Notes: a model not told the origin generated them from the sequence alone. Shown: positions 5,879 through 43,452, numbered from the stretch's first letter. The stretch: DNA of 64,000 bases from Candidatus Omnitrophota bacterium (GCA_016208765.1 JACQXK010000009.1:118255-182254); one strand, 5' to 3'. Translations and numbers: made by a program.

Positions 5879-6020
5879 TCCCCAAGCACTTAAAGTTATT
5901 TGCGGGCGGTATGCCTTCGGGTGGTTTCGTCAACAACCCTCTCGAAGGCTACCGCACGCTCGTTCCAATCAAAACCACCCAAAACCCCCTAACCCAAAAA
6001 CCCTTAAGGCAGGGCGGGGC
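5879..6020. repeat. Left copy of 142-bp inverted repeat (IR-L), G-rich, with a G-tract (G4-prone) segment and an internal 13-bp hairpin
   Basis: Its reverse complement matches 32687-32828 at 141/142 positions (single T/C difference). Contains CCC/GGG tracts (CACCCAAAACCCCCTAACCCAAAAACCC) and the hairpin GCGGTA(T)GCCTTCG...CGAAGGCTACCGC. Confidence 0.9.
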
Positions 6021-6035
6021 TAATAAAGGAGAAGC

Positions 6036-6809
6036 ATGAGAAAAGGAAGATTAACAAAAGAAGAACAAGCGCGTAGAATCAAGTCATTACTTATCTTTAT
6101 CTATACTTTTCGATATGCAACGAGGAATCAATTGGAGATGTTTATTCAGGTGGTAATGAATCTATCTTTTACGCGCTGGCTTATAGATTATTCTCTTAAC
6201 AAGGGCTTCATCAATGCTTACTACGAGTCTTTATTCAAGACAAAAATCTACTATTTAACCTATAAGGGTAGGGAAATGATTTGCGATCAAGCCATGGTTG
6301 AACATTACTATTTTGAGAAGGCTCACGCGGGGTTAAATACCTTTATTCATCATAATAATATGATAGAGGCCTTTATGTTACTTAGAAGCCACTTGAATAT
6401 CGAAGAATGGGTGTGTGAGTGGGACCTAAGGAGGGGCAAGAGGGCAGGTGAGAAAATTCCCGATGGTTTAATAAAGCTTACGGAAGGAATCAATATGGCT
6501 TTGGAAGTGGAAACCCGCTATAAAACCCTTGGGATCCTAAAGACATTCATTAAGAGATACCGCTACGATATAGAGAAGATTTCTAGGTATCATTGTTTAT
6601 TGGTTGTAGCTTCAAGCAGGTTTAATTATGACGGCTTAAGAATGAGGCTGTATAACATTGCCCCGGAATTCTGTTCAAAAGCTCTTATTTTGGCTGATCT
6701 GGGTATGCTTGAGTTGGGAATGTGTTTCTACCAAGGCAAGCTGATACATCTTGAAGAAGCAATAAAGTTGTTAAAAGAGGGAGGGCAAAATCATGGACAA
6801 ACCGTTTAG
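6036..6809 (+). CDS. Replication-relaxation (Replic_Relax) family protein, putative relaxase/initiator
   Basis: 257 aa. Winged-helix-like N-terminus (LIFIYTFRYATRNQLEMF). Immediately upstream of, and overlapping, the coupling-protein gene. Family assignment is by overall resemblance only. Confidence 0.4.
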   Translation: MRKGRLTKEEQARRIKSLLIFIYTFRYATRNQLEMFIQVVMNLSFTRWLIDYSLNKGFINAYYESLFKTKIYYLTYKGREMICDQAMVEHYYFEKAHAGLNTFIHHNNMIEAFMLLRSHLNIEEWVCEWDLRRGKRAGEKIPDGLIKLTEGINMALEVETRYKTLGILKTFIKRYRYDIEKISRYHCLLVVASSRFNYDGLRMRLYNIAPEFCSKALILADLGMLELGMCFYQGKLIHLEEAIKLLKEGGQNHGQTV

Positions 6810-9057
6810 TTTAAAAGGATTCTTTATAAAGATATTGGTGTTGGTTCCGCTATTCTATATCGGCTTCGGCTGGTATATCGGTCTCAACTACGGAAGAAAG
6901 GGCGCCATTTTGGGACCCTTTGATAATATCCCTGTGGTGATGAAGACTAGTCTCTTGGGCTCATCCCTTGAGGATATTTCAGGCAGTAAAGCTTTGGTAA
7001 TGGTTGTGCCGCCAAAAGAAACCGGTAAGTCTGATCAGGACTCAACTTATTTTAAGATAACCGGTTATTTTGAAGTGCCCGGGAGTTGGGCTTTTGATTT
7101 TGCGCCTTCCGGCAACGATATTGTCCTTCCAAAGACCTTTGCTATGACTGGAAGCTATTCTAGGGTCATTTGCTATGAGCTTAAGAATCCCAGGCACAGG
7201 TTAGGAAGCTTGTCAGTAAGAGAGCTTAATGATCTTCTTAAGGCATCCGGCAGAACCAAGGATATGTTAAGTTTGATGCCTTATCTATTTCTTTCAAATA
7301 TGGAAGAGAAATACCCTTGGCTCTACTCTGACACAGTACTCTTGTCCAGAGCAATGGGTAATATCTTTAAAGACAATATGCTTCCCTACGACATATTAGG
7401 GTTAGCAGGTATAGCAGTTTTTTTTATTGCAATGGCTGCAAGAAGCTTCTGGCTATGGATATATTACTTGTATTGGGTGTTTGCTTACTGGTTCGGCAGG
7501 ATTGGCTACCATGATATAAATCTGTCTTTTAGTAACGATGGCTGGCAGGTAATCCGTTGGAGCTTCTGGAACGGTTTTATCATAAAAGAGGGAAGGTTAT
7601 TCCTGATTATAGCCTTTGGTTTGTCAATTATCGGATTTACAGGCTTGGGTATTATTTATGTGATTAAACACGTGATACCGCGTAAAAGGCGAGAGCTGGA
7701 GGATTTCTTAAAGATAGACAAAGAAACACAAAAGAGAAAAGAGCTTTCCATTGAAACTGTTGAGTTTAAGAAAGTCCACTTTAACATCAACAAAAAGTTA
7801 AATCAATACGCCAAGACAGACAAATATTTTCTGGCTGTCTCAGATGATAAGCTGGATGTGGTTGTCGAGGAGGCTGTGCTTAACCGTCATCTGCACGTAT
7901 TAGGTCCTACAGGAGGCGGAAAAACTTCATTAGTGATCCTTCCTTTAAGCAGGCAGGCGATAGAAAAAGGAAGAGGCTGCTGCTTTATTGATTTTAAGGG
8001 CGATGAGGTTTTTAAAAAGTATGTCCAGCAGCAGGCAAAAGAAAAGGGTAAGAATTTTTATTATTTCAGCATTGACCCTAACGAGCCGTCATCAGGGTAT
8101 AATCCGCTCTCCTCAGGAGATATCCATTCCAAGGTAGACAGGATTATGACGGCACTTGAACTGATTTATCACGGCCCGGCCGGATTTTACTCTAACGTGC
8201 AGGCAATGGCATTCGTTGCATTATTAAAAGAAATGGCTAAGGAAAATAAAGAGATAAATTTTCTTTCGGTTAAAGAAGAATTGGATAAGCCGGACTTTTT
8301 AGAAAGAACGGATGTAAGCGCTCAGGAAGTAAAGGGGCTCGTGGCAGTAATTTCTTGGATTGCAGATATCGATGTAATAAACCGGGATGAACTGGATTTA
8401 GCCAAAGCGATTAAAAACGGCGATATTGTATTCTTCGCCTTAAAGAGCCAGGTGAATACGCGCCTGGCCGAGGCAATAGGTAGGATGCTTATAATTGATC
8501 TTAAATGCCATGCAGTATCCCGCAAGGAAACGGATCCACCTTACTTTATCTTCATTGACGAATTCCAGAATTTAGCTTGTTCGCATTTTGTAGATGTTAT
8601 TTCTAAAGTAAGATCCGCTAATTTCTGCTTGGTTTTATCCAATCAGTCGCGGGGCAACTTATCCAATGTATCAGCTGCATTCGAAAATGCGATTTTCACC
8701 AATACCGCAACCAAGGTAATCTTCATGCAGGAGGACCCTTTTGATGCGAGGTTCTGGTCAGATAAGACAGGGCAGACCACTTATCAGGATAAGAGCGTGT
8801 TTCAGGTGGATAACATAAGTAATGATAAGGCAGGTGCCAAGCTTGACGGTTTAAGATCCGCTCAAGGCAATATCCGGACCGCTCTTAAGAACTACATTTC
8901 AGAGAACGTGTTTTTAAGGCTGCCGTTTCATAAGTCTGTTATTTTTTTAAGGGAAAAACTCACCGTAATAGCTAACCATGAGTTCTTATTTGACAAAAAA
9001 GAAAGAGACAGGCTTATCGCGAACCCGTTTGAATATGACAAGAATAAAGCAGCATAA
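6793..9057 (+). CDS. traD: Type IV coupling protein (VirD4/TraD/TraG family ATPase)
   Basis: 754 aa; N-terminal TM helices; Walker A LGPTGGGKTS; Walker B FIFIDEFQNL. TrwB/TraD-like architecture. Confidence 0.75.
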   Translation: MDKPFSLKGFFIKILVLVPLFYIGFGWYIGLNYGRKGAILGPFDNIPVVMKTSLLGSSLEDISGSKALVMVVPPKETGKSDQDSTYFKITGYFEVPGSWAFDFAPSGNDIVLPKTFAMTGSYSRVICYELKNPRHRLGSLSVRELNDLLKASGRTKDMLSLMPYLFLSNMEEKYPWLYSDTVLLSRAMGNIFKDNMLPYDILGLAGIAVFFIAMAARSFWLWIYYLYWVFAYWFGRIGYHDINLSFSNDGWQVIRWSFWNGFIIKEGRLFLIIAFGLSIIGFTGLGIIYVIKHVIPRKRRELEDFLKIDKETQKRKELSIETVEFKKVHFNINKKLNQYAKTDKYFLAVSDDKLDVVVEEAVLNRHLHVLGPTGGGKTSLVILPLSRQAIEKGRGCCFIDFKGDEVFKKYVQQQAKEKGKNFYYFSIDPNEPSSGYNPLSSGDIHSKVDRIMTALELIYHGPAGFYSNVQAMAFVALLKEMAKENKEINFLSVKEELDKPDFLERTDVSAQEVKGLVAVISWIADIDVINRDELDLAKAIKNGDIVFFALKSQVNTRLAEAIGRMLIIDLKCHAVSRKETDPPYFIFIDEFQNLACSHFVDVISKVRSANFCLVLSNQSRGNLSNVSAAFENAIFTNTATKVIFMQEDPFDARFWSDKTGQTTYQDKSVFQVDNISNDKAGAKLDGLRSAQGNIRTALKNYISENVFLRLPFHKSVIFLREKLTVIANHEFLFDKKERDRLIANPFEYDKNKAA

Positions 9058-9077
9058 AATAAAAGGAGGGAAGAGAA

Positions 9078-9401
9078 ATGTGTAGAGATATTAAAAGAAA
9101 GAGCTTTATATTAAAGACCTTTGCGGTCTTGTGCTTGGTTCTCGGATTTTCAATGGCGGTGGCACCTTTTGTCTTTGCGGAAATAAGCACCACCCAGGAG
9201 CAACAGGTAGTAAGCGACTTCGCCACGTTTATCATCAACATACTCACCGGACCTGTGTCAAAAATCCTGGGGGCAATATTGTTGATTGGCGGCGTGTTTG
9301 CGCTCTTAAACGGAAAGCAGGGAGTGGCTATAGCCTGCGGTTTTGGGTTCATGATTCTTATGTTTATACCCAAGATTCTGGAAGGATTGTTTAAGCAGTA
9401 A
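9078..9401 (+). CDS. traA: Conjugative propilin (TraA/VirB2/TrbC family)
   Basis: 107 aa; long leader with a signal-peptide-like region, then two hydrophobic helices (ILGAILLIGGVFALL, IACGFGFMILMFIP). Strong AGGAGGG RBS. Sits in the traA position ahead of traL. Confidence 0.55.
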   Translation: MCRDIKRKSFILKTFAVLCLVLGFSMAVAPFVFAEISTTQEQQVVSDFATFIINILTGPVSKILGAILLIGGVFALLNGKQGVAIACGFGFMILMFIPKILEGLFKQ

Positions 9402-9688
9402 TGAGAAAATGCCTGCGCACTATTGATAAACCGCTGCTGCTCTTCGGGCTTGAGCCTGAAGACGTGGGGATACTGGCTTTGGCCTGCGGCTCGATGATTT
9501 TATTCTTTGATACCTTTTACGCAGGCCTGGTATTCTTTGGGGGCTGGATGTTTTTAAGGTTAATAAAGCAGGGCAAGCCCCAGGGTTACATTACACACAT
9601 GTTTTATAAGTATGGGATTCGGATAAAAGGCTTGATTGCCCCGCCAAAAAAAGTTAAAATATATTCAGTTTTTAGGAAAGAGGATTAA
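9401..9688 (+). CDS. traL: TraL (VirB3-like) pilus assembly protein
   Basis: 95 aa. Alignable by eye to F TraL (FGLEPEDVGILALACG versus F LGLPLDEVIPAAICIG; RLIKQGK versus RKLKKGR). Confidence 0.55.
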   Translation: MRKCLRTIDKPLLLFGLEPEDVGILALACGSMILFFDTFYAGLVFFGGWMFLRLIKQGKPQGYITHMFYKYGIRIKGLIAPPKKVKIYSVFRKED

Positions 9689-9690
9689 CT

Positions 9691-9882
9691 ATGCAGATGC
9701 AAAATTTTACAATACCAGGATTATTATTGGTTGTCTCAATCGTTGTCCTTTATTTCCTGCCGACATTGATTGCGTTTTTAAGGAACCATAAAAATAAGCT
9801 GGCGGTATTTTTACTAAACCTGCTTTTAGGTTGGACAGGATTGGGATGGGTGGTATCACTTGTCTGGTCGGTAATGAAGTAA
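9691..9882 (+). CDS. Small membrane protein of the superinfection-immunity family (Imm_superinfect-like)
   Basis: 63 aa, two TM helices, family-typical motif YFLPTLIAFLRNHKNK...LLNLLLGWTGLGWVVSLVWS. Confidence 0.5.
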   Translation: MQMQNFTIPGLLLVVSIVVLYFLPTLIAFLRNHKNKLAVFLLNLLLGWTGLGWVVSLVWSVMK

Positions 9883-9921
9883 ATAATGCAAGATAATTTA
9901 GCGGTTCAGGAAAAAATTTAT

Positions 9922-9949
9922 ATAAAAAATCTTGACAATTTAAAATTAT
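9922..9949 (+). promoter_or_regulatory. Sigma70-type promoter (TTGACA, 16 nt spacer, TGT-extended TAATAT)
   Basis: Near-consensus -35 TTGACA at 9922-9927 and extended -10 TGTGTAATAT ending at 9949, in the 200-bp gap upstream of traE. Confidence 0.5.
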
Positions 9950-10020
9950 TGTGTAATATTAAATTAACAATTAGGTAAAGTAGATTTAACACAGTCGCTA
10001 TCACTCGGTCGCAAGACCGG

Positions 10021-10064
10021 AGAAAAATAGGGCTGGTTTTCTGAAAGCAATTTCAGAGAGCCAG
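10021..10064 (+). terminator. Intrinsic terminator / attenuator hairpin in the traE leader
   Basis: GGCTGG ... CCAGCC outer stem with nested CTGAAA/TTTCAG inner stem, followed by TTTTTTATTT. Lies between the promoter at 9922 and the traE start at 10080. Confidence 0.5.
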
Positions 10065-10079
10065 CCTTTTTTATTTGCC

Positions 10080-10697
10080 ATGAATGATTTTAAACCAGAG
10101 AAATTAAAACGCACCGGTTTCGTTGAGAAATGGGCTCATGCAGAACAGACTTCTGCATTTTTGGGGATCAGCCTTTACGCTATTATTATTTTTTGTATAG
10201 CCTTATTGCTTACGTTATTTAAGGTATCCACAAAGCCCCAGGCCATTTATTACATCCCAAGCGCACAAGAAGCTGGCATTGCTTATCCTAACCGCATAGA
10301 TAAAACAATGATCTGCGGTTTTGCTTCAAACTGGCTCTTAAACCGCAATAACTTCACTCCCGCCACAGTCAAGGACACTTATCAAAGAGCAATGCGTTAT
10401 ATGGCGCCTGGGCTACTTTCCAGGACAAAGGCAAGCCTGGAAGATGAAATATTAAGAGTTACGCGCGACAATATCTCTTCGTTATTTTCCCTAAGCAAAG
10501 AGCCGGAATTAGAAGACTCAGGTACGGATTTTAAGGTAACGCTCACTGGAGAAAAGATTATTTTCATGGGCAAAGAAAAACTTGATGATCGTATTCTTCG
10601 TTACACTATGACCTTGCAAAGAATTTCGCCTATTGAGACCAACCCTTACGGAATAGTGATAGCGGGAGTAAAACAGGAAGAGGTAGAGACACAATGA
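10080..10697 (+). CDS. traE: TraE (VirB8-like) inner-membrane pilus assembly protein
   Basis: 205 aa; single N-terminal TM helix. Segment RAMRYMAPGLLSRTKASLEDEILRVTRDN aligns with F TraE ALLQYIRPGAQNQMKVILAEEAKRIKNDN. Confidence 0.55.
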   Translation: MNDFKPEKLKRTGFVEKWAHAEQTSAFLGISLYAIIIFCIALLLTLFKVSTKPQAIYYIPSAQEAGIAYPNRIDKTMICGFASNWLLNRNNFTPATVKDTYQRAMRYMAPGLLSRTKASLEDEILRVTRDNISSLFSLSKEPELEDSGTDFKVTLTGEKIIFMGKEKLDDRILRYTMTLQRISPIETNPYGIVIAGVKQEEVETQ

Positions 10698-11416
10698 AAA
10701 TACTTAAAAAGTTATTTATTTTAATGCTTGTTTCTAGGTTGGTTCTTACGGGGCAAGTTAATGCTTCAAGTGCATCGGATTACAGCGATGAGATTACCTT
10801 AAGGTTAAAAGCAGGCATGATTACCGAAGCTGAGTTTTCGGAAAAAATCACCAATGTCACAAAAAGTGCGGCAAGCGACATGCTGCAGATTGAAACACTC
10901 GGAAATAGGATTTTTTTGCTGCCCAGAGAAAATTTAGAATCGCAACTATACGTAATCACCCAGGACAATGTTTCCTATTGCCTGCATTTAATCATGGATG
11001 AAGCACAAGCTCCTACCCGCATAAAAATTAAGAAGCCTTATCAGAAGATAAACGAAGAGCAGGCCAATGTCACGGCAAATACGGTTGAACTAATGAAAGC
11101 GCTTCTTACTGGCAGGCAACCGGCGGGTGCAGTCAGCTCCAGGCTGCATCCCCAAGAGATTTTTAATAACGGTAAATTCCGTATAGTTATAGATGAGGCT
11201 TATGAGTTTTCCAATAATGTAAAAGCCCTTGTTCTGACTTTTGAGAACTTGGATCATAAACCGCTTGTCGTACCTATTGAGCATATAGAGCTTCCGGGTT
11301 TATTGGCCATAAGCATAGACAGTCAGATATTGGAGGCAAAGCCTTATGGCACTAACAAGAAGCATTCAAGTTACGCTACAAAGGCTTACATGATTGTGGA
11401 AGGGTTAACACAATGA
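10694..11416 (+). CDS. traK: TraK (VirB9/secretin-like periplasmic ring component)
   Basis: 240 aa with signal peptide (MKILKKLFILMLVSRLVLTGQVNASS). Size and position (after traE, before traB) match F TraK. Confidence 0.45.
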   Translation: MKILKKLFILMLVSRLVLTGQVNASSASDYSDEITLRLKAGMITEAEFSEKITNVTKSAASDMLQIETLGNRIFLLPRENLESQLYVITQDNVSYCLHLIMDEAQAPTRIKIKKPYQKINEEQANVTANTVELMKALLTGRQPAGAVSSRLHPQEIFNNGKFRIVIDEAYEFSNNVKALVLTFENLDHKPLVVPIEHIELPGLLAISIDSQILEAKPYGTNKKHSSYATKAYMIVEGLTQ

Positions 11417-12648
11417 AAATATCGCTTGATAAGATTCCCGGTTTTAATAAGCTTCCGCCGGTGCTGCGTAATAATCCGAAATTAGCTTTCGTGATTATTT
11501 CCTGTCTGGTTGTGGTTCTAATATTTTTGCTGTTTGCAGGAAGCAAGGAAACCCAAAAAATACAGAAAAGCCTGGGGTTAGTTGAAGCTAAGAAGGGTGC
11601 CGGCTTGACGGAGGATAAAGATGTCGGCGTTTTAGTGGGCTCTGTGGATACAAAGTCTTATGTTTTGCGCATTGAAAAGCAATATTACGACATCAGCTCG
11701 AAGTTTGATTCTTTGAATGAGCGCATCGGAGCACTTGAAAAGAACGATCAGGATTTACGTAAAAACCTAGGCGATGTAAGCAGCATTGTCATGGCCTTTG
11801 ATAAGAAAGTAACGGATAAATTTGAGCAGAAAACCGGCTTAACAAAGAAAAGCCTTGAGCGGGGGCAGAGCATCGGTTCTATTGAAGAGGCGTTAATTAA
11901 TCCTTTTTTCATGTCGCAACCAGCCGGCAAGACAATTAATCTGGAAATGGCTAAGGTTGGCGAAATAAGAAATGAGGAAAAAGCTCCCGGGAAGAATTAC
12001 GTTTATCTTCCTTTGGGCAGCTTTGTCAAATGTACTCTTCTTACCGGCGTGTATGCCCCTGCTAATGAAAGCAACCCCTTGCCGGTATTAATCAGCGTGG
12101 ATGAAGCTTTTTACGGCCCGAATAACACAAGGATTCCCTTAAAAGGTGCCTTTGCCATCGGCAAGGCAGTGGGCGATGTGGTCTCGAAAAGGGCAATCAT
12201 TCAGATTGTAAGTTTTTCCGTAGTATTGCCAAATGGACAAGTTTTTGAGCATGAGGCGAATTTGGGGTACTTGGCTGATAGCGACGGACGTTTAGGCATA
12301 CAGGGTGAGTTAATTTACAACACAGGAAAACAATTAGGCCTGAATTTTTTATCCGGATTCCTTGCAGGAGGCTCTGAGGCGCTCTCCCAGGCAGAGACCT
12401 CAACCGTTACCGGCGCATATGGACAAACTTCAAGGAATGTTACCGGCAACACCGGACGTTATTCCATGTTTTCAGGCCTGGCTAATAGCGCGCAAGGGAT
12501 GTCAAGTTACTATCAAAAACAGTTAGAAGCCATGATCCCTGCGGTAAAAATTGAGGCAGGAAAAAAAGCTGTTTTAGTTGTCCAGAAAGGAGTGCAAATT
12601 GAAGGCCTTGAAATTTCCAGTGATAATTTTGCTTCTCTTGATGACTAG
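11413..12648 (+). CDS. traB: TraB (VirB10-like)
   Basis: 411 aa; N-terminal TM helix (LAFVIISCLVVVLIFLLFAG), coiled-coil linker, beta-rich C-terminal domain. Position is between traK and traV. Confidence 0.5.
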   Translation: MKISLDKIPGFNKLPPVLRNNPKLAFVIISCLVVVLIFLLFAGSKETQKIQKSLGLVEAKKGAGLTEDKDVGVLVGSVDTKSYVLRIEKQYYDISSKFDSLNERIGALEKNDQDLRKNLGDVSSIVMAFDKKVTDKFEQKTGLTKKSLERGQSIGSIEEALINPFFMSQPAGKTINLEMAKVGEIRNEEKAPGKNYVYLPLGSFVKCTLLTGVYAPANESNPLPVLISVDEAFYGPNNTRIPLKGAFAIGKAVGDVVSKRAIIQIVSFSVVLPNGQVFEHEANLGYLADSDGRLGIQGELIYNTGKQLGLNFLSGFLAGGSEALSQAETSTVTGAYGQTSRNVTGNTGRYSMFSGLANSAQGMSSYYQKQLEAMIPAVKIEAGKKAVLVVQKGVQIEGLEISSDNFASLDD

Positions 12649-13000
12649 CGGATGTGTTGCGTCTAAAGGAATAGTGAAGGACAGCCCAAGCAGGGTAATG
12701 GATGTATACCTGGAGGCTGTTTCTGGCGGAAGGATAGATGCAGTTAACTATATAAAGGAAAACTTAAAAATTGATAAAGCCTTTGGCTATGTAAAGCCCT
12801 ATGTTCCGGTGGTTGAGCCTGCGGATGTGCGCATGGTATGGCTGCCGGCGCATAAGTCAAAATATTCATCTCAAGTTTTAGTCAGCGGCCATTGGGTTTA
12901 TGTCATGGTGAAAGATTCACGCTGGTTTATTGATACACAAGCTAAAGGTGAAGCAAAAATTCCCTTGATAGTCCCTTATAAGGAAGTTAACAAAAAATGA
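12578..13000 (+). CDS. traV: TraV-like outer-membrane lipoprotein
   Basis: Lipobox LLLLMTSGC. An in-frame TTG at 12608 would give a clean lipoprotein signal peptide and reduce overlap with traB. Sits in the traV position before traC. Confidence 0.4.
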   Translation: MSRKECKLKALKFPVIILLLLMTSGCVASKGIVKDSPSRVMDVYLEAVSGGRIDAVNYIKENLKIDKAFGYVKPYVPVVEPADVRMVWLPAHKSKYSSQVLVSGHWVYVMVKDSRWFIDTQAKGEAKIPLIVPYKEVNKK

Positions 13001-18592: not shown

Positions 18593-18612
18593 AAAAGAAG
18601 GGGGTGAAGCAG

Positions 18613-18828
18613 ATGTCATTTATTATTGGAAAAGTTACGCGCAAGGTAAGTAAGCAGCATAACGAGTATTTTACAGGAAAGGTCTGTAATTTGCCGGTAA
18701 GGGCGTCTTGGGCAAAAAAGGGCCAGGATGATTTATGTTTATTCCTGGACACAGAGAAAATCAATTTTCTTTCAGAGCAGAACAAAGTTCCAGGCGGTGC
18801 AGGCGCTCAGCAAGAGAATAAACAATAA
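18613..18828 (+). CDS. Small hypothetical protein (71 aa)
   Basis: GGGGGTG RBS upstream of the ATG at 18613. No recognisable motif. Confidence 0.2.
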   Translation: MSFIIGKVTRKVSKQHNEYFTGKVCNLPVRASWAKKGQDDLCLFLDTEKINFLSEQNKVPGGAGAQQENKQ

Positions 18829-18900
18829 CGGTTAAAATCCAGAGTGAGCCAGCCGGATTATTCAGGATCCGCTGGTTCACTCTCTAAACTTTAGAAACCC

Positions 18901-20030: not shown

Positions 20031-20031
20031 A

Positions 20032-22878: not shown

Positions 22879-22894
22879 AGGAGGTGAGGAAAAG

Positions 22895-24577: not shown

Positions 24578-24583
24578 AGACAA

Positions 24584-26016: not shown

Positions 26017-26741
26017 GAGCATTTATTCTTATGTTTATCCTTTTTTTATCGCACCTTGCTAATGCATCCGCAGAAAGTATCTTTCAGTATAAACGGATTG
26101 ATTTTTTCCGAGAAATAGAAACACAAATAGAACCAGTAACAGCACAAACTAATAATTCTTCCGAAGTTATTACAGAAGAATGGGCTGAACCAATAATTGC
26201 TCCTTCCGGCAAAGTAAATGTCTATGTACCGCCTAAAGAGGTGAGGAATTTCCTGGATAAGCCCGATCCGGATAACGCAAGGGCATACTTACAGTGGAAC
26301 TTAAAGAGGATTAAAAAATTCATCCTTGCGCAGGAATTGCTAAGAAAAGAAGCAAAGGAGCTTGAAGTGATTAAGGAAACGAAAAGCCTGCTTGAACCCG
26401 ATTCTCCAGCAGGATTTAGGGATTCTAGTAGCAATACAAAAGTTGATGTGAGTTATCTGTTCTATTTTATGCTAAAAGGTTGCCCTGTGTGTGAGAAAGA
26501 ATCCCAGGTGATAGAAGACGTCTATCTTAATCATCCAGAAATCAGAATCGAAGCCTTTGCCAAAGGCTTCTCTGACAGGGAGCTAGAAAACTTTAAGTTT
26601 TCTGCCAAGCAAGATTCTGGCATGAGCAGCCTTTTTAAGGTTGAATCATATCCGGCTATTGCAATATTTAACAAAAAGAATAAAAGGTATTTTCTTTCGG
26701 GGTTTGTAGATAAAGAGAGGATACTTAAGCTGCTTAAATGA
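26013..26741 (+). CDS. traF: TraF/TrbB-like thioredoxin-fold protein (CxxC)
   Basis: 242 aa; signal peptide; CPVC redox motif in a thioredoxin-like C-terminal half. Confidence 0.45.
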   Translation: MRAFILMFILFLSHLANASAESIFQYKRIDFFREIETQIEPVTAQTNNSSEVITEEWAEPIIAPSGKVNVYVPPKEVRNFLDKPDPDNARAYLQWNLKRIKKFILAQELLRKEAKELEVIKETKSLLEPDSPAGFRDSSSNTKVDVSYLFYFMLKGCPVCEKESQVIEDVYLNHPEIRIEAFAKGFSDRELENFKFSAKQDSGMSSLFKVESYPAIAIFNKKNKRYFLSGFVDKERILKLLK

Positions 26742-28018
26742 AGAAAATCATTATTTCTTTAGCTTTAATTTCGCTATTAAGAGGTATAAGCTATGCTGAT
26801 ATTTTCTCTAAAGACGATACCACTAGCCCTTATACCATAGACAGCGCTATTTCCGAAGATAGGTCCGGCTTCTATTACCGGGGAGGTCTTGACTACCGGC
26901 CGACTGTTCCGGTTGATGAGCCGGGAGTAGGTTACTCTATCTTAAGTGGTTCAAAAGGATGCAGCGGTTTTGACCTTGCCTCAAGCTTTAACAGCGTTCT
27001 CTCAGAACAGATCCTGGCGGATTATATGAAAGGTATATCCAGCGAAGCAATGGCAGCTGCACCGATGTTATTATTAGAGTATGTTTCGCCGACATTGGCA
27101 GACATCATCAAACACTTTAATGCTATGACTAATATGCGCCTAGGTCTAAGGTATGCCCAATGCGAAGACATCGAGAAGGCAGCCGGGGAATACATGGATA
27201 AGCTAAGGAAAAAGAGTGAGAGCGAGTGCGTTAAAGAAAAAGTAGCAACCGGCCTTGATATTGACTCAGCGCTTAAAGCCTGCAAAGAGGGGAAAGATCC
27301 ATTCGCCTTCCTGAAGAATGCTGAAGGCGTTCCCTTGGCACAGGGAGGAAAAATCGATGTACTTTCAGATATCTTTAAGAAGATAAATATCCCGGGCGAG
27401 AGAAAAGATTTTGTCAAATCAGTGGTAGGCGAGACCACCATCACCTCATCACAGATTGAGAACAACAAAGGAGAAAAATCCATCTATAAGGTAAACGATG
27501 AGTTTAGGTCTGAAACTTCCGATAAGTTTCTCTCTCTTTTCAATGAATACCTGAATTCAAAAACTGTATCCAGCGATTCATTAAAAGGCCTGTCCTTACA
27601 CAATAATCCGGTGACAGAGGAACAGATTAGAGATATAGCTTTGATGCCTAAGGCAAAACAATATATAGCGATTTCCAAAATTTCCTCTGACATAGCTTAT
27701 TTTAAGACTGTCTCCCAATACAGGCAGGCTATGGATGATTTATTAGAGGCAATGCGCGCGCCTGGCTTAGATGATGTGCAAAGAGGCGTGCTTGAGCGGG
27801 ATTATAATTACCTGAAAGAGAAACTGGAAAGATTCAAAGAGGAAAGAGAGATTTATAAAGATTACAACGAAGCCGTAGCCGGTATCTTATCGGAATCAGA
27901 AAAAGAAAAGCTCAATACCATTATAAATGATGATGGAACAAGCTCGTATTTCAACGATACTACTGAAACGCAGGATAAAAAAGAGATGTACCTGTCTGCT
28001 ACGGAAGAAAAGGAGTAA
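26738..28018 (+). CDS. traH: TraH (F-type pilus assembly)
   Basis: 426 aa; signal peptide. GxGC.GxD...SF segment (SGSKGCSGFDLASSF) resembles F TraH (NAGCGGIDAFLGSF). Coiled-coil C-terminus. Confidence 0.45.
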   Translation: MKKIIISLALISLLRGISYADIFSKDDTTSPYTIDSAISEDRSGFYYRGGLDYRPTVPVDEPGVGYSILSGSKGCSGFDLASSFNSVLSEQILADYMKGISSEAMAAAPMLLLEYVSPTLADIIKHFNAMTNMRLGLRYAQCEDIEKAAGEYMDKLRKKSESECVKEKVATGLDIDSALKACKEGKDPFAFLKNAEGVPLAQGGKIDVLSDIFKKINIPGERKDFVKSVVGETTITSSQIENNKGEKSIYKVNDEFRSETSDKFLSLFNEYLNSKTVSSDSLKGLSLHNNPVTEEQIRDIALMPKAKQYIAISKISSDIAYFKTVSQYRQAMDDLLEAMRAPGLDDVQRGVLERDYNYLKEKLERFKEEREIYKDYNEAVAGILSESEKEKLNTIINDDGTSSYFNDTTETQDKKEMYLSATEEKE

Positions 28019-28091
28019 TATAAAAAATGAAGATTTTAGATCATGATCTCAAACTATTAAAATATATTCAGTTTTTAGGAAAGAGGATTAA

Positions 28092-28958
28092 CTATGCAGA
28101 TTTACGAAAGTAAAACCCTTCTTTGAAATAAGGGTGTTTTTTTAATAGTTCAACCCTACGTAAGTTGAGATTGGATAGTCCATTTCTCACGGTTTCCTCG
28201 TAATATTTTTCTCGATTTCCTACCAATTTGTTCTTTCCGTTAAAAAATGTTTCAAAGATTATATGTTTGATTCTTATAAAATCATCTTTAATTATAGCAT
28301 TGATTGCAAGCAATGAGTCTAATATATGCACCATTCTTAAGCAATTATCTCGATGATAAGTAGGATCAATCGATGAAAGATGTGCCCAAATATGTCGGTT
28401 AAAATTTAATAATGGCAAATCGGATCTTCTTCGTACCTGTTTATATAAAGTATTAGAAAGTAAAGTAAGTAGATTTTCTACGATGTAAGTGAGAAGCGGT
28501 TGTAATTCAGGGCGTCCTGCGCGTAGAGACATCATTCTTTGAATATTACTATTGTCTATTCGAACGAATTCCCTTTCTCCTATTAACTGGAGGATGATGC
28601 CTTCTGGCAAGGGAGTCAATACTCCCTCACAAGTAATCAAGTTTAAGTCATACAACTCTAGAAGACCGATTTCAACCAAGTGCGAGAATTTATCTATTGG
28701 CTGAAGATTACAGTATCCTTCTTCTATCAATATGGCCCGAAATTTATAAAGAAGTGTATTAACAAATATCTCATCGGCAATCATCTTCCCGTAATGTTCT
28801 TTATCTCTTAGGGTGGGCGTTCCAGGAAGGCGTTTGATAAAATCAATAAATTTTGGCTTTACAAACTGAAAAAACCAAAAAGGAGATATAACCCATTCAT
28901 ACTTAGTTAATTTTACATTGGCCAAATTATATGATTCAAAGAGTTCTCCATCAGTCAA
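28092..28958 (-). CDS. Hypothetical protein on opposite strand (possible Abi-like defence gene)
   Basis: 288 aa; no motif recognised with confidence. Its 3' end abuts a 46-bp duplicated segment. Confidence 0.25.
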   Translation of the reverse strand: MTDGELFESYNLANVKLTKYEWVISPFWFFQFVKPKFIDFIKRLPGTPTLRDKEHYGKMIADEIFVNTLLYKFRAILIEEGYCNLQPIDKFSHLVEIGLLELYDLNLITCEGVLTPLPEGIILQLIGEREFVRIDNSNIQRMMSLRAGRPELQPLLTYIVENLLTLLSNTLYKQVRRRSDLPLLNFNRHIWAHLSSIDPTYHRDNCLRMVHILDSLLAINAIIKDDFIRIKHIIFETFFNGKNKLVGNREKYYEETVRNGLSNLNLRRVELLKKHPYFKEGFYFRKSA

Positions 28959-29340: not shown

Positions 29341-29675
29341 ATCCCCTTTCTTTTTATCCGCCTACAATAACCCAAGCCTGACTTTTGCTCAAGAAAATCC
29401 TTCGGAAAAATTCATCTCTGCCTAAAAAGCCTTTTCGTGGTTTGCCTCGGAAAGGCTTTTTTGTCATCAGAAGTATTCTGCCCCTATAGGGGAGTCTCAA
29501 TTTTTCCAAAGGACTCCCAAGAAGGTCGCTCGTTTGGCTCTCGCTTCCCTTCGGGCATGTCTGTTTTTTTGACAAAAGACCGTATTTTCTGTGGTGTGCC
29601 TCAAAAAATACTTCAATTTCTTGGGTTTTAATTTTCGGCGTCAAAAGAAAGGAGGCTTACATGAGCCAAGTAAAA
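29341..29675 (+). promoter_or_regulatory. Copy 1 of a ~320-bp duplicated leader/promoter module (ends in RBS + ATG + MSQVK)
   Basis: About 80% identical to 33190-33512. Contains TTGACT/TTGACA boxes, the hairpin GGGAGTCTCAATTTTTCCAAAGGACTCCC, and a conserved AAAGAAAGGAGGCTTACATGAGCCAAGTAAAA end. Confidence 0.6.
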
Positions 29676-29963
29676 ACAAAACAAAAAACAAATCGAAAGG
29701 AGGTGAATACTATGATTGAAGTAGCCAGAGTTTATAAAGTCGAAAAAGACGAGAGCTCCCTGAAGGCCTTTGTTGACATTAAAGTCGCTGACGCGGTTTT
29801 AATCAAAGGTATCAGGGTTATGGCTAAAAAAGACGGCGGGCTGTTCGCAGCTATGCCATCCCATTTAGCTGGCGACGGTAAGTATTACGATACCGTTCAA
29901 TTCTTAACGCCTGAGGCAAAAACCGAATTGCAAGAAGTGGTTCTTGCAGCCTACGAGGCTTAA
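29661..29963 (+). CDS. spoVG: SpoVG-family nucleic-acid-binding protein
   Basis: IKGIRVMAKKDGGLFAAMPSHLAGDGKYYDTVQFLTPEAKTELQEVVLAAY parallels B. subtilis SpoVG ([47 protein letters not shown]). An internal Met at 29712 with an AGGAGG RBS is the probable true start. Confidence 0.65.
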   Translation: MSQVKTKQKTNRKEVNTMIEVARVYKVEKDESSLKAFVDIKVADAVLIKGIRVMAKKDGGLFAAMPSHLAGDGKYYDTVQFLTPEAKTELQEVVLAAYEA

Positions 29964-30021
29964 AGAATTTAAAAACTTTAAAAGCTGTCCTATCGGCTAT
30001 ACGGGGGAAAGGAAAGATAAA

Positions 30022-30255
30022 ATGAACTTAAACGAACTAGAGAACGAAAAGACAAAAATTAAGCTTGCAGGGGAAGAGGTAGAGGTTAAAACTTCTGATT
30101 CCGTAAAGGATACCTTAACAAGGCTCCTTAAGGAAAAAGGCATTGATTCTTTTACCATTTTGGTTGACGGAGAAGAAGTTACCTCTACCGATGACTTGCC
30201 GGCTACTTTTGACGGTCATGATATCGAAGTTGAAAGATACGTCAAGGCAGGTTAA
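30022..30255 (+). CDS. Small beta-grasp ubiquitin-like protein (Ubl) with C-terminal Gly
   Basis: 77 aa. Alternating hydrophobic pattern of a beta-grasp fold (KIKLAGEEVEVK ... FTILVDGEEV). Ends ...VERYVKAG. First gene of an E2/E1/JAB cassette. Confidence 0.5.
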   Translation: MNLNELENEKTKIKLAGEEVEVKTSDSVKDTLTRLLKEKGIDSFTILVDGEEVTSTDDLPATFDGHDIEVERYVKAG

Positions 30256-30325
30256 ATAAAAAAGCCAAAGGAGAGGGAGAGATTCTTTTCTCCCTCTCCT
30301 AAAGTTTAATAAGGAGCTTGAGAAG

Positions 30326-30913
30326 ATGATAGATACGGAATTAATCACAAAAGCAAAGAAAAAATCAACATTAATTGAAAAGATTGACGCCTCTTGGCGG
30401 GAGTTTACGGAAAGCTTAAAAGAAGGTATCTTTACGGTTCCTTTTACCGGAGGTTACAGATGCGTAATCAAGGAAGATGATATGCTTATTGAGGGCTATT
30501 CTGGTCTATTGCTCATAGATAAGGTCTACTATAGCCATAAGACCTATTCTTTAAAGATACCTGTCAAATATTACCCTTTTAAAATTTACGGCATCTATGA
30601 CCAAGGTGGCTGCTTTATTGCGTTTGTTTCAGAGCCGGAGATAGGCTTCCACTATTTGGGTATGAGCGATAAGGGGCATACCATCTGCACCGGAGAGATT
30701 CAATACCTTAACCCTGAATCTTTAGGCTTGCTCAAAGAAGCCTGCTTAAAGATAGCCAAGTCATTCAGGGTAATCAACCTTGAATCCTTAGGAACCGTAA
30801 TCTTACCCGAGAGATTCTCAAATTTAAAGAACATCCTGTCAAATAAAGATAAAGATGTATCATGCAAATTTTCGGAATTGGATAAGCAAGGTCTGATTGA
30901 GCGGATCATTTGA
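30326..30913 (+). CDS. E2-like (UBC-fold) conjugating enzyme candidate
   Basis: 195 aa; HYLGMSDKGHTICTGEI resembles the UBC HPN...Cys catalytic segment. Sits between the Ubl and the E1. Confidence 0.4.
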   Translation: MIDTELITKAKKKSTLIEKIDASWREFTESLKEGIFTVPFTGGYRCVIKEDDMLIEGYSGLLLIDKVYYSHKTYSLKIPVKYYPFKIYGIYDQGGCFIAFVSEPEIGFHYLGMSDKGHTICTGEIQYLNPESLGLLKEACLKIAKSFRVINLESLGTVILPERFSNLKNILSNKDKDVSCKFSELDKQGLIERII

Positions 30914-31854
30914 AGGAGGATAAAACTATGCCACAAGAAGCTATTTATGAACGACAGAGATTAATAGAAGGTCTAGAAATACCCGAAGTCGCCTCGGTAG
31001 TAGGCTGTGGCGGAACGGGTTTCTGGACTGCTCTTCTTCTTTCCATGTCAGGAATTAAAGAATTGATCTTGGTTGATACCGATATAGTTGAGGTATCCAA
31101 TCTGAACAGGCTGCTTTTACAGGAAAGCTCTGTAGGAAAGAAGAAAGCAGAAGCCCTAAAAGAACTCATATCCGGCATAAGAAAAGAAATAAGGATTGAG
31201 ATTCAGGATATGCGTATCGAAAAGCCCATAGACTGCCAGATATTACGTGGAGATATATTTTGCTGCACGGACAACTTAAAAAGCCAGCAGATTATCTGCG
31301 CTTTCTGCAAAAAGAACGAACTTGCCTACCAAAGAATTGGCTATGACGGCACAATCCTGAATGTTTCAAAGACCTTCCCGCTTTCCTTAAAAGATACAGA
31401 TGAGGATCGGGGCTATACAATTACTCCTTCCTGGGTGATTCCTGCGGTATTTGCCGCGGCAGCCGGAGTTTCATCACGCACTTACAAGGAACTTTGCCTT
31501 ATGGATGATATCGGGAAGGTTCATATACAGCATTCTTCTCATATCTGTCGCAAAATTTTAGACGATGCGAGAATCGAAGGCGAGGATAACATTATTGATA
31601 ACATCGAAGACCATATACCTGATAACTACGGTTACTGTGATGATTGCTCAAGGATTGACCCTGACGGCTCTGATTACGGATACTGTCCTGACTGTGAAGA
31701 ACATTACAGCGATGACGATATAGAGGACATAAAAGAAAAAGCAAAGAATGAGGAGTACGACCGGATAATCGGGGAGATTGAGGCAGGAGAGATTACTGAC
31801 CCAAAGTTATTAGAAGCCATTAGAAAATGGGCAAAAGCAAAAGGAGGAAAATAG
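30910..31854 (+). CDS. E1-like activating enzyme (ThiF/MoeB/UBA superfamily)
   Basis: Rossmann motif VVGCGGTGFWTALLLSMSGIKELILVDTDIVEVSNLNRLLL (GxGxxG ... D.D.V..SNLNRQ). Acidic Cys-rich C-terminal tail (CDDC...CPDC). Confidence 0.75.
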   Translation: MKEDKTMPQEAIYERQRLIEGLEIPEVASVVGCGGTGFWTALLLSMSGIKELILVDTDIVEVSNLNRLLLQESSVGKKKAEALKELISGIRKEIRIEIQDMRIEKPIDCQILRGDIFCCTDNLKSQQIICAFCKKNELAYQRIGYDGTILNVSKTFPLSLKDTDEDRGYTITPSWVIPAVFAAAAGVSSRTYKELCLMDDIGKVHIQHSSHICRKILDDARIEGEDNIIDNIEDHIPDNYGYCDDCSRIDPDGSDYGYCPDCEEHYSDDDIEDIKEKAKNEEYDRIIGEIEAGEITDPKLLEAIRKWAKAKGGK

Positions 31855-31855
31855 A

Positions 31856-32668
31856 ATGTTTACGTTAGAAGATACTAAAACCAAAAAAAGCAATATTTTA
31901 GATGTAAGGATAAAAAATTACGGGGAATGTGGTTTTTGTACTGACCATGACCACAAAGAAACTCTAAAGATACCTTGGAATATCTGGAGTCAGTGGCAGT
32001 ATATCAGTCAGCGCATACAGGATAAGGAATGGGGCGCTATATTTTGGGTTAAGGATAATACCATAACGAGCTTTAAAATCCCAAAGCAGGAGGTAGGCTC
32101 AGTAGACTGTGAATTCAAGGAAGAATTAGGGGGTGATGGCATAATCCATTCGCACCACGATATGGGAGCGTTTCATTCATCGCAGGACGATGCCCACGCG
32201 CGCAATCTCTACACTTACAGCATAGTTATAGCTAATTCCAAGGGAAGTATTGCTACAAAAAGAGTAAAGCTACCCTGTAACGGCTTTGGCTACGTCAAAA
32301 TAAGCTTAAAACTGGTTGAATTACCTGAGATAGATCTTTCAAAGATAAGCGAAAGAACAAGGGAGTTAATTCCAGAGGCGACCTCAGAATTTGAAGAAAG
32401 CGAGCATCCTTGCGACAGTTGTCAAACCGGCGACTGCGAGAACTGCGAACACTTAGGTATGCCTTATCTAGCTTGCCAGACCTGTGATACCTTTAAATGC
32501 AAATCGTGCAAGACAACCGCCGGTCTGGACATCCGGGGTGTGCTTCCTTTTTGCGAGCTCTGTAATGGCTCTGATATTTGTGCTTCCTGCGAAAGAATCG
32601 CAAAATACCTTAAAAATTACCCAGAAGAGCGAGGTCATTTACAAACTCCAGTTGAGAGCCAGGCGTAG
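31856..32668 (+). CDS. JAB/MPN (JAMM) metallopeptidase with C-terminal Cys-rich zinc-ribbon region
   Basis: Exact JAMM motif H-S-H-x7-S-x2-D in IIHSHHDMGAFHSSQDD plus upstream Glu. C-terminus has ~16 Cys in CxxC pairs. Confidence 0.7.
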   Translation: MFTLEDTKTKKSNILDVRIKNYGECGFCTDHDHKETLKIPWNIWSQWQYISQRIQDKEWGAIFWVKDNTITSFKIPKQEVGSVDCEFKEELGGDGIIHSHHDMGAFHSSQDDAHARNLYTYSIVIANSKGSIATKRVKLPCNGFGYVKISLKLVELPEIDLSKISERTRELIPEATSEFEESEHPCDSCQTGDCENCEHLGMPYLACQTCDTFKCKSCKTTAGLDIRGVLPFCELCNGSDICASCERIAKYLKNYPEERGHLQTPVESQA

Positions 32669-32686
32669 AGGTTTATAAATACGCTC

Positions 32687-32828
32687 GCCCCGCCCTGCCT
32701 TAGGGGTTTTTGGGTTAGGGGGTTTTGGGTGGTTTTGATTGGAACGAGCGTGCGGTAGCCTTCGAGAGGGTTGTTGACGAAACCACCCGAAGGCATACCG
32801 CCCGCAAATAACTTTAAGTGCTTGGGGG
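32687..32828. repeat. Right copy of 142-bp inverted repeat (IR-R)
   Basis: Reverse complement of 5879-6020, 141/142 identical. Begins 19 bp after the JAB gene stop. Confidence 0.9.
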
Positions 32829-43449: not shown

Positions 43450-43452
43450 AAT

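Follow-up and report, generated by a model that had tools for sequence, protein, structure and literature searches.

Twin inverted copies of a 141-nt unit around the transfer genes of an Omnitrophota element: a candidate MOB_C origin of transfer

Why should a conjugative element carry the same short sequence twice, in opposite orientations, at the two ends of its transfer genes? The question is raised by the window, a 64-kb stretch of Candidatus Omnitrophota DNA in which a 141-nt unit (IR-L) is matched by its reverse complement (IR-R) at 140 of 141 positions, the lone mismatch lying at 6004 (T) of IR-L. An earlier sequence-only reading had placed the repeat correctly but as a 142-nt span (5879-6020 and 32687-32828) with 141/142 identity; that span scores 140/142, because the outermost base differs too. 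The match can be extended to 162 nt at 94% across the AT-rich flanks, and it is the sole long inverted repeat that the repeat search finds in the window, the runner-up being 35 nt at 74%. The copies had been described as GC-rich islands; their GC content is indeed 55%, but against 40% for the window the contrast is moderate. IR-L ends, as had been noted, 15 nt before the ATG of the relaxase gene mobC (6036), and IR-R adjoins the JAB gene with a gap of 18 nt rather than the 19 given before. Between the two lies, as proposed, the relaxase-to-JAB module, a DNA-transfer gene block of 26.7 kb. An assembly artefact is ruled out by independent assemblies: both inner junctions recur in the Logan assemblies SRR12113402 and SRR12113406, each with its own SNP allele, and two further long contigs from other assemblies show the identical two-copy layout.

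We consider the bracket and its surroundings together (Table 1). A type IVb pilus cluster (secretin, PilQ/R/S/V-like) is embedded in the type IV secretion (T4SS) genes, and the genes from SpoVG to JAB are the final ones within the bracket. The traG_N-like gene and the HTH_17 excisionase-like gene lie outside, which places both repeats in the interior of the element, in agreement with the earlier view. The homology that the element family shares with relatives begins at 4393, and conserved synteny with them stops at about 34727-35066. Farther to the left of traG_N, the relatives have a RepO-like gene and a tyrosine integrase, apparently that of the island.

Table 1. Features of the repeat units and of the genes around them (window coordinates)
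Feature	Position	Strand	Remarks
traG_N-like gene, outside IR-L	4396-5766	+	
Three exact TGCGAATTAT sites	5776-5785, 5815-5824, 5850-5859	-, +, +	spacer 5776-5859
IR-L, left copy of the 141-nt unit	5880-6020	+	C-rich strand on +, same sense as mobC
Outer conserved box CCCCAAGCACTTAAAGTTATTTGC	5880-5903	+	IR-R equivalent 32804-32827; from family comparison
Large imperfect hairpin/palindrome	5902-5959	+	IR-R equivalent 32748-32805
A-tract motif CAAAACCACCCAAAAC, candidate nic region	5970-5985	-	IR-R equivalent 32722-32737
Inner GC clamp GGCAGGGCGGGGC	6008-6020	+	IR-R equivalent 32687-32699
mobC, 257-aa MOB_C / Replic_Relax-type relaxase candidate	6036-6809	+	winged HTH + PD-(D/E)XK-like domain
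Type IV coupling protein	6793-9057	+	
F-like T4SS genes: TrbC/VirB2-like, TraL, E, K, B, V, C, U, F, H	9078-28018	+	
SpoVG, two unknown genes, ThiF-like E1, JAB	29661-32668	+	E1 30910-31854; JAB 31856-32668
IR-R, right inverted copy	32687-32827	-	140/141 vs IR-L; single SNP 32703
Small genes outside IR-R: 66-aa ORF, 103 aa, 121 aa, 71 aa, DUF6876, HTH_17	32874-35066	+	
DUF6876 gene	34261-34677	+	among small genes outside IR-R
HTH_17 excisionase-like gene	34875-35066	+	among small genes outside IR-R

The unit is clearly not a dispersed repeat detached from transfer genes, which would have refuted the earlier reading. Among some 60 related loci (numbered L below), taken from genomes and metagenomes of Omnitrophota, its copies lie within conjugative or mobilisable islands or at island edges. 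One copy stands 7-45 nt upstream of mobC in every lineage examined, with MobC identities of 47-100%. The six lineages that were retrieved by protein rather than by DNA (L048, L050, L053, L067, L068 and L069) all have it there, and it is kept even in small islands with mobC and the coupling protein alone (L050-53, L068). Some relatives are single-copy. The two-copy layout is found on three long contigs (the window, 26.7 kb; Ga0187886_1000036, 35.4 kb; JBGGHH010000107.1, 26.8 kb) and again in decayed mini-elements of 1.5-2 kb (L045, copies 154/156 identical; L030, 114/118), and the second copy is retained although its position varies, following JAB, SpoVG or the 71-aa ORF. The family also shows many other rearrangement scars, among them boundary copies of the unit that adjoin tRNA genes, promoter regions that have been duplicated, an exact direct repeat of 45 nt and truncated coupling proteins.

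The two copies evolve in concert. Within an element, the six pairs compared are identical at 139/140 (three pairs), 143/143 (two pairs) and 135/140 positions, that is, with at most one difference in five of the six, while identity between elements is 82-86%. Large inverted repeats such as the plastid IR with its flip-flop and the rrn repeats that mediate inversions are known to recombine and to be homogenised. Our units resemble them in being near-identical within a genome and divergent between genomes, with an occasional exchange of flanks exactly at the repeat; they differ in being just 141 bp long, in having one strongly dominant orientation, and in a conserved anatomy that is tied to a relaxase gene.

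What is this anatomy? Its centre is a hairpin of 58 nt with an imperfect stem of 18 pairs; the 13-bp hairpin of the earlier reading is real, with its size understated. Across the family copies, 87% of the cells are paired, as opposed to 31-41% in slid registers, and six pairs show compensatory changes; a clear strand asymmetry of the hairpin was looked for and not found. The loop carries the conserved motif GTCAACAA (5929-5936), and the outer box is among the most conserved segments outside the hairpin. The A-tract motif is the sole non-hairpin motif common to all three sequence types, in each of which AAAAT(C/T)AC(C/T)(C/T)AAAA is present. Opposite to it, and antisense to the relaxase gene, lies GGGTGGT (5974-5980 on the - strand, 32727-32733 on the + strand), a heptamer that drifts by type (GGGTGGT, GGGTGAT, GAGTGAT, AGGTAAT). 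Two to three loose short repeats, CAAAACCACC, CAAAACCCCC and CAAAAACCC, occupy 5970-6003, and the inner GC clamp belongs to the type I (large ICE) variants only. The G-run motif GGGTTTTTGGGTTAGGGGGTTTTGGGTGG, proposed earlier as a potential G-quadruplex, is present; a canonical G-quadruplex (four runs of at least three G, loops of 1-7 nt) is found only in the two copies of the window among about 50 family copies, the G-rich strand of the other 48 or so having none, and it is therefore no family feature. A G-rich, G-quadruplex-prone stretch is needed for mobilisation at the oriT of pIGRK (PMC8152469). Our candidate shares such a stretch, but MobK of pIGRK is an unrelated, tyrosine-recombinase-like protein, and the canonical motif is here confined to the window element.

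We turn to the protein encoded next to IR-L. MobC has an N-terminal MarR-like winged HTH and a C-terminal PD-(D/E)XK nuclease domain with the acidic and lysine catalytic residues, arranged as PD..ExE..K. The window protein has no match in Pfam at E<=5 and scores 37.7 bits (E 1.4e-9) against NF041423, where the cutoff is 200; many homologues at 49-90% identity carry PF13814, and NCBI names the identical protein a "replication-relaxation family protein".

The systems that are closest in kind are CloDF13, whose nic, GGGTG/GTCGGG, lies within an inverted repeat of about 134 bp, upstream of and antisense to the mob genes (PMC5935869), and oriT2 of pAD1, the TraX site, with a large inverted repeat and adjacent short repeats (PMC12857230). 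The relaxase candidate has the fold and motifs of CloDF13 MobB/MobC and pAD1 TraX, namely a winged HTH and a PD-(D/E)XK-like domain (PMC12857230, PMC5935869). As in both plasmids, the unit adjoins mob genes and sets a large inverted repeat beside short A/C repeats; its GGGTGGT coincides with the CloDF13 nic sequence through the latter's first 7 nt and, as there, runs antisense to the mob genes. The differences are also clear. The heptamer is the whole of the nic match and drifts by type, the hairpin has no clear strand asymmetry, and the window MobC falls short of the Pfam and NCBIfam thresholds and is too distant for a tblastn match among PLSDB plasmids, all of which counts against the origin-of-transfer reading; no DNA similarity is detectable past the heptamer. 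The hairpin measures 58 nt, where the plasmids have about 134-140 bp, and some 15 nt separate it from the candidate nic, whereas nic is inside the inverted repeat in pAD1 and CloDF13. The pAD1 relaxase binds five direct repeats at 70-120 bp from nic, compared with our two to three loose ones. Finally, the host is an Omnitrophota bacterium, the element is chromosomal, and the unit is doubled, inverted and 27 kb apart.

Combining the linkage to mobC, the layout of large inverted repeat and short repeats, and the geometry of the CloDF13 heptamer, we favour the "oriT-like site" among the options listed earlier. We give about an even chance to the reading in which the element's MOB_C relaxase recognises the unit in cis as its oriT, the unit probably serving also as leader or operator region of the mobC operon and being present as twin inverted copies that are subject to gene conversion. 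According to this model, MobC would bind the unit and nick, at GGGTG^GT, the strand that is antisense to its own gene, and the nicked DNA would exit 5'->3' away from mobC. Since the inverted units sit at the ends of the mobC-T4SS-JAB block, a strand that departs from either would bring in the outer arc first, and the 26.7-kb block would come at the end. The leading genes would be the small "establishment" genes, the Xis-like gene and cargo in a transfer that starts at IR-R, and traG_N followed, in relatives, by the integrase in one that starts at IR-L. Gene conversion would keep both copies almost identical; if they recombined reciprocally the block would be inverted, an event that is presumably rare or counter-selected.

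One oriT suffices and single-copy relatives exist, so that oriT function alone leaves the second copy unexplained. A further reading, which we consider unlikely, is that both copies are active origins nicked on opposite strands and that the island can be exported either way. The transfer block would then always come last and the early genes would depend on the origin: with IR-R they would be those for establishment and anti-restriction, with IR-L those for integrase and replication. The transferred single strand would hold both copies, which could anneal as a 141-bp panhandle; mismatch correction of this duplex at each transfer would account for the near-identity, and the duplex could act as a double-stranded entry site (for priming or as a promoter) on the incoming strand.

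A different answer is that the unit is regulatory and serves the mobC operon as an operator or as a 5'-UTR leader, with the inverted copy regulatory as well; this seems to us improbable. The three TGCGAATTAT sites surround a weak promoter-like TTGATT-17-AATTAT, and this operator-like spacer adjoins IR-L only. Lying between it and the mobC RBS, IR-L is inevitably within the mobC 5' UTR. Every inverted copy is upstream of a + strand gene, mostly within about 45-110 nt (the 66-aa ORF, DUF6876, HTH_17, AbiEi or RepO), and a purely regulatory role, at the level of DNA or RNA, therefore fits the positions equally well. The inverted copy might bind the same regulator before the downstream "establishment" genes, or read-through of the transfer operon might yield an antisense RNA to the mobC leader, which in the mini-elements would span the RBS and start codon too and give feedback control. 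In type II elements the repeat extends across the RBS and 20 nt into mobC, and autoregulation at oriT-overlapping promoters is common for relaxases and accessory proteins (PMC5587640). Against this, the unit contains no promoter-like site, the type I copy ends before the RBS, and the folding z-scores of the window copy are modest; the Rfam covariance models give no match at gathering score in the whole window and, at E<=1 around IR-L, only a chance-level miRNA match outside the repeat. A regulatory role also fails to account for a nic motif like that of CloDF13 and for a layout like that of MOB_C oriTs, and it is compatible with an oriT role rather than exclusive of it. That the second copy has no function, being an ancestral inverted duplication or a junction scar from the joining of the transfer block to the rest of the island, kept similar by RecA-dependent gene conversion, is to our minds a minor possibility. 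Single-copy relatives function with one unit, and the family is rich in other rearrangement scars; but the two-copy layout is kept across lineages 15-20% apart in DNA and in modules from 1.5 to 35 kb, the second copy survives its shifts of position, and an identity of at least 99% is hard to hold for a neutral 141-bp repeat with its partner 27-35 kb away.

Could the repeats be crossover sites of a switch, in which the mobC/T4SS operon is cut off from its promoter when the block flips, turning transfer ON or OFF? The operator/promoter-like region does lie outside the bracket, concerted evolution implies recombination between the copies, and two flank exchanges at the repeat lend weak support to the "inversion site" of the earlier reading: L009 and L061 share 99.76% identity along the 2123 nt that end at repeat position ~122 and then continue into mobC (L009) or JAB (L061), and L026 shows an analogous swap against L013/L041, between a boundary copy and IR-L. 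The orientation, however, is almost constant, being the same in three of three two-copy contigs and at about 20 independent junctions, about 12 on the traG_N side and about 9 on the JAB side, and the complementary traG_N-IR-JAB junction is never observed. No recombinase gene is found inside or beside the bracket of the window's element, and the recombinant contigs are explicable as short-read chimeras via the 122-nt exact repeat; the lone L009/L061 junction may be an inversion or such a chimera. We therefore hold the switch to be very unlikely. Still more remote is a transposon-like cassette, with the repeats as terminal inverted repeats carrying relaxase and T4SS. The identical outer ends (CCCCAAGC...) do face outward around the gene block, the 1.5-2 kb mini-elements included, and MobC has a nuclease fold. 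The "terminal repeats of a mobilisable cassette" suggested earlier are nevertheless not supported: the outer flanks, TTTATTAT and GTAAAGAA, show no target-site duplication, no transposase family is found inside the bracket, single-copy relatives exist, and the outer neighbours are constant in relatives (traG_N; the small-gene block), so that there is no sign of independent insertion.

Returning to the unit as a candidate oriT, we note that dual oriTs are documented in ICEclc, pAD1 and R6K/IncX (PMC5587640, PMC5812530, PMC6561031, PMC11915502). Like these, the window element has two oriT-type sites, here candidates, and its MOB_C relaxase candidate contrasts with the MOB_H of ICEclc. The oriT pair of R6K is an inverted repeat, served by a MOB_P relaxase; ICEclc and pAD1 have two sites each that are not known to be near-identical copies. 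We know of no description of these systems in which the pair brackets a whole T4SS block or evolves in concert, and we regard the twin inverted units as a new version of this two-origin arrangement.

To our knowledge, the conjugative elements found in uncultivated phyla generally, Omnitrophota among them, are essentially uncharacterised, and of the relaxase classes MOB_C is the least understood: it forms no covalent intermediate, and only two of its oriTs have been studied. The family supplies, from comparative data, a compact candidate MOB_C oriT made of a box, a hairpin and a nic-like motif, whose cognate protein is small (257 aa) and amenable in vitro. The unit is a cause of contig breaks and possible chimeras in metagenomes, and a practical marker with which such islands can be found and delimited there. 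What purpose a second oriT serves is a question that has stood since R6K and ICEclc, and single-copy islands, 2-kb mini-elements and 27-35-kb twin-copy ICEs form a natural series in which it can be addressed.

The transfer block of the window (mobC, the coupling protein, the T4SS and the JAB genes) is bracketed by two inverted copies of a 141-nt unit, IR-L and IR-R, which direct sequence comparison finds to be reverse complements with a single mismatch (6004/32703). A repeat search of the 64-kb window returns this pair as its only long inverted repeats, the runner-up being 35 nt at 74% identity, and the GC content of the unit is 55% versus 40% for the window. Long near-perfect inverted repeats are therefore present as the sequence-only reading had claimed; its limits of 142 nt are right in position, but the extra base differs between the copies (140/142). 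The 15 nt between the end of IR-L and the mobC ATG (6036) agree with that reading, the gap between the JAB stop (32668) and the adjoining IR-R is 18 nt, and the traG_N-like and Xis-like (HTH_17) genes do lie outside the repeats. An assembly artefact does not account for the pair, since the Logan assemblies of SRR12113402 and SRR12113406, which were made independently, reproduce both the mobC-side and the JAB-side junction. The Logan contigs of the two sides each carry their own allele of the single SNP and end 31 nt past it, as expected of a genuine two-copy repeat.

Coordinates of the features in the window and of copies and contigs in related loci
Feature	Position or extent	Remark
Housekeeping genes	window start to about 3000	
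IS200/Y1-type transposase gene and truncated comM 3' end	3064-4145	HTH gene follows, before traG_N
traG_N	4396-5766	outside bracket, directly left of IR-L
TGCGAATTAT cluster	5776-5859	three exact sites within 84 nt
IR-L	5880-6020 (+)	
mobC, 257-aa ORF	6036-6809 (+)	inside bracket
Coupling protein, F-like T4SS genes with embedded type IVb pilus cluster	to 28018	inside bracket
45-nt direct repeat	9654-9698; 28057-28101	exact
traE leader	9883-10079	TTGACA at 9932-9937; terminator-like hairpin and T-run at 10029-10068
~200-nt duplicate	29482-29681; 33320-33518	direct orientation
SpoVG, two unknown genes, ThiF-like E1, JAB peptidase	29661-32668	end of transfer block, inside bracket
IR-R	32687-32827	
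GGGTGGT on G-rich strand of unit	5974-5980 (-); 32727-32733 (+)	
Four small ORFs, DUF6876, HTH_17 excisionase-like gene	HTH_17 gene 34875-35066	right of IR-R
Fatty-acid/polyketide-type cluster with many response regulators, 4630-aa ORF		right of HTH_17 gene
Boundary copies of unit	L013 1687-1992; L041 3147-3452; L026 5927-6233; L016 4181-4311; L024 2204-2329	inner end outward
traE-leader relatives	L006 494-658; L016 4590-4654; L024 1863-1978	
Spacing of copies in two-copy contig, window	26.7 kb	
Spacing of copies in two-copy contig, Ga0187886_1000036	35.4 kb	
Spacing of copies in two-copy contig, JBGGHH010000107.1	26.8 kb	

Homology to related elements begins at 4393, left of IR-L, and fades at about 34727-35066, right of IR-R. 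No tRNA gene is found in the window, unlike the related islands, which sit at tRNA-Phe, tRNA-Ser and tRNA-Asn. Integrase and RepO-like genes stand left of traG_N in three related loci (L006, L008, L016) and are absent from the window, whose copy of the island may have lost the ability to excise. The comM fragment holds only the C-terminal 167 residues; an island splitting comM, with its other half at 62942-63931, is ruled out, as the ORF there is a histidine kinase. The SpoVG-to-JAB genes form a conserved cassette closing the transfer block, and PRTRC system models match it weakly (TIGR03735, E 3.5e-4; TIGR03736, E 0.05). Further right, 35082-46036 and 47586-61478 hold a cluster for ketosynthases and acyl carrier proteins (two of each), six receiver-domain proteins, a 7TM-GAF histidine kinase and an amine oxidase, and after it the 4630-aa ORF; this stretch may be either cargo of the island or chromosome. 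The host is Candidatus Omnitrophota, and NCBI lists the identical MobC, encoded on a 220-kb contig, under the name 'replication-relaxation family protein' for Omnitrophica. Near and distant DNA similarity searches of PLSDB plasmids, tblastn of MobC against plasmids and exact-pattern scans of viral contigs give no match.

Several other repeats and leaders are seen in the window. The traE leader has a near-consensus promoter (TTGACA-16-TAATAT), a GCAA-loop hairpin and then an 18-pair terminator-like hairpin with a T-run right before the traE ATG, and looks like an attenuator; related islands have its 3' part again, 79-92% identical, ahead of RepO-like/integrase genes. The 45-nt direct repeat, which comprises the RBS and start of a superinfection-immunity gene, encloses the T4SS and pilus block (18.4 kb). 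A crossover between its copies would delete the secretion genes, and the resulting mobC-first layout would recall the mini-elements of other genomes. A region of about 200 nt upstream of SpoVG has a second copy, 83-92% identical, ahead of a 121-aa ORF just outside IR-R, and may be a common promoter or leader.

Relatives of the unit come from a 24-mer scan of metagenome contigs (21 loci), from a scan of species-representative genomes with a degenerate outer-box pattern (23 loci) and from retrieval through MobC or JAB homologues, the search for further copies that the sequence-only reading had proposed. The genome loci comprise 17 in Omnitrophota/Omnitrophica MAGs, four in MAGs binned to other taxa and two in Nostocales; the Nostocales pair gives no match to a profile built from the repeat and seems due to chance. 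Alignment and synteny give three sequence types: type I is the form in the window, type II also takes in the RBS and 20 nt of the start of mobC, and type III is single-copy. Every lineage has one copy 7-45 nt upstream of the mobC start codon, with the C-rich strand in the mobC sense, and the unit is thus not a dispersed repeat unlinked to tra genes. It is also found upstream of mobC in all six lineages retrieved by protein and not by the repeat (L048, L050, L053, L067, L068, L069; MobC identity 49-64%), and in small tRNA-associated islands that hold only mobC, the coupling protein and defence cargo (L050-53, L068). The unit is a conserved cis element tied by position to a MOB_C-like gene.

Extra copies at island boundaries have tRNA-Phe about 75 nt away or border directly on unrelated genes of the chromosome; some are without the GC clamp, and some retain about 15 nt of the mobC start. 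The idea that they mark 'nic-defined' island ends was dropped because the divergence point is about 15 nt off the candidate nic.

All types have in common an outer box with a ACTTAAAG or ACTTATAG core, a large hairpin-forming palindrome, the loop motif (G/C)(T/C)CAACAA, and a GGCTACCGCA segment followed by AAAAT(C/T)AC(C/T)(C/T)AAAA. In a model-fitted alignment of 31 distinct copies, 87% of the hairpin positions form standard pairs versus 31-41% in slid registers, and compensatory double changes occur at six pairs, a count attained in only 4 of 500 shuffles. The same hairpin is predicted for all three types. As to its strand, 59 G.T versus 27 A.C cells favour the C-rich strand; folding energies favour the G-rich one. 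Rfam holds no family matching the unit, at gathering score or at E<=1. The potential G-quadruplex of the sequence-only reading is there, but its canonical pattern is restricted to the window's two copies; it is therefore not a feature of the family and is rejected as the functional core. Of an intrinsic terminator there is no more than a weak 5-bp stem with a T-run at the inner-end GC clamp, which is confined to type I; types II and III lack it. The window copy has a further GGGTGGT at its hairpin apex, which is not a conserved feature.

The neighbouring ORF is a candidate MOB_C-type relaxase. The window MobC falls below the Pfam thresholds and scores under the cutoff of NF041423. Other lines of evidence are stronger: most of its homologues carry PF13814, D143, E157, E159 and K163 are invariant across 38 MobC homologues, and the mobC region of CloDF13 can be aligned to the PD..EVE..K stretch. 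The comparison set of CHARACTERISED MOB_C origins consists of the CloDF13 nic/oriT region and pAD1 oriT2. PMC5935869 quotes Núñez and de la Cruz (2001) for GGGTG/GTCGGG as the mapped nic of CloDF13. The CloDF13 record has this sequence once, upstream of the mob genes and on their antisense strand, inside a composite inverted repeat of about 134 bp that adjoins direct repeats. In pAD1, oriT2 is a large inverted repeat containing nic, accompanied by short direct repeats to which TraX binds (PMC12857230). The unit, with its hairpin, has motifs resembling these origins: as in CloDF13, the GGGTGGT of the window is antisense to mobC, and it lies within the sole non-hairpin motif common to all types. 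In other types it varies to GGGTGAT, GAGTGAT and AGGTAAT. Because the match to the CloDF13 nic is short and drifts between types, we regard it as a lead and no proof. In the CloDF13 record (L066, NC_002119) the RefSeq/PLSDB annotation of the mob region (6000-7600) is split into short hypothetical ORFs, and MOB-suite calls the plasmid non-mobilizable, though it has both the published nic sequence and the catalytic motif of mobC.

The layout traG_N - unit(+) - mobC...JAB - unit(-) - small genes is found in three long contigs from different assemblies. In type II mini-elements the inverted pair encloses no more than mobC, a superinfection-immunity gene and a truncated coupling protein (L045: 156 nt, 154/156 identical, 2.0 kb apart; L030: 118 nt, 114/118 identical); these mini-elements look like deletion derivatives of ICEs. 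In seven mini-elements (L045, L027, L025, L044, L046, L038, L039) the coupling protein is reduced to its first ~300 residues, beside mobC and the immunity gene, with AbiE and TerB/BrxC-type defence genes next. Within elements the two copies match at 139/140, 139/140, 139/140, 143/143, 143/143 and 135/140 positions, three of these six pairs being assigned from the same metagenome and not the same contig; between elements the identity is 82-86%, about equal to the divergence of the flanking DNA. The copies thus cluster with their partner in the element, whatever their position. Such concerted evolution implies that gene conversion, or a copying process equivalent to it, has acted repeatedly. The transfer block is flanked by the unit and its inverted duplicate, and the two copies are homogenised.

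What the pair is for can be read in more than one way. The second copy might be without function, and single-copy islands do exist; the site of the inverted copy varies (after JAB, SpoVG or a 71-aa ORF), yet the copy is kept. IR-L and IR-R might instead form an inversion switch, as the sequence-only reading suggested. About 12 distinct junctions on the traG_N side lead into mobC, and about 9 on the JAB side lead into the small-gene block. Exceptions are of two kinds. Loci L009 and L061 agree at 99.76% of 2123 nt as far as repeat position ~122, past which L009 enters mobC and L061 enters JAB, the inner-end SNPs going with the inner flank; L011 is a further variant of this sort. In L026 a type II copy connects traG_N with tRNA-Phe, and defence genes take the place of the latter in L013 and L041. 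A crossover within the repeat is expected to give such products, and a short-read assembler mis-joining through an exact repeat of 122 nt would give them equally. The complementary junction was never seen among the junctions examined. We conclude that one orientation strongly predominates and that inversion is at most rare.

Transposon ends are the least likely of the readings. A further alternative is a purely regulatory DNA or RNA element. The window has exact TGCGAATTAT sites only in the cluster before IR-L, where their arrangement is operator-like, and similar motifs, ACGAATTAT and ATGAATTAT, stand upstream of the unit in relatives (L050, L048). IR-L is placed between this cluster and the mobC RBS, so a regulatory role of the same MobC-unit complex is likely, judging from this placement, in addition to a role in transfer.

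The oriTs of R6K are arranged as an inverted pair. Dual oriTs are already known from R6K/IncX, ICEclc and pAD1 (PMC5587640, PMC5812530, PMC6561031, PMC11915502), as are MOB_C origins with large inverted repeats. In the searchable literature we find no description of this Omnitrophota element family, no comparative definition of its candidate oriT, and no near-identical inverted copies bracketing an entire T4SS block with clear concerted evolution.

We infer from sequence and position that the unit most likely functions as an origin of transfer. MobC would bind the unit and nick its G-rich strand, and transfer after nicking would run away from mobC. A start at IR-R would bring in the small-gene/Xis/cargo arc first and a start at IR-L the traG_N/integrase arc first, and with two such outward-facing origins the transfer block would always be the last to enter.
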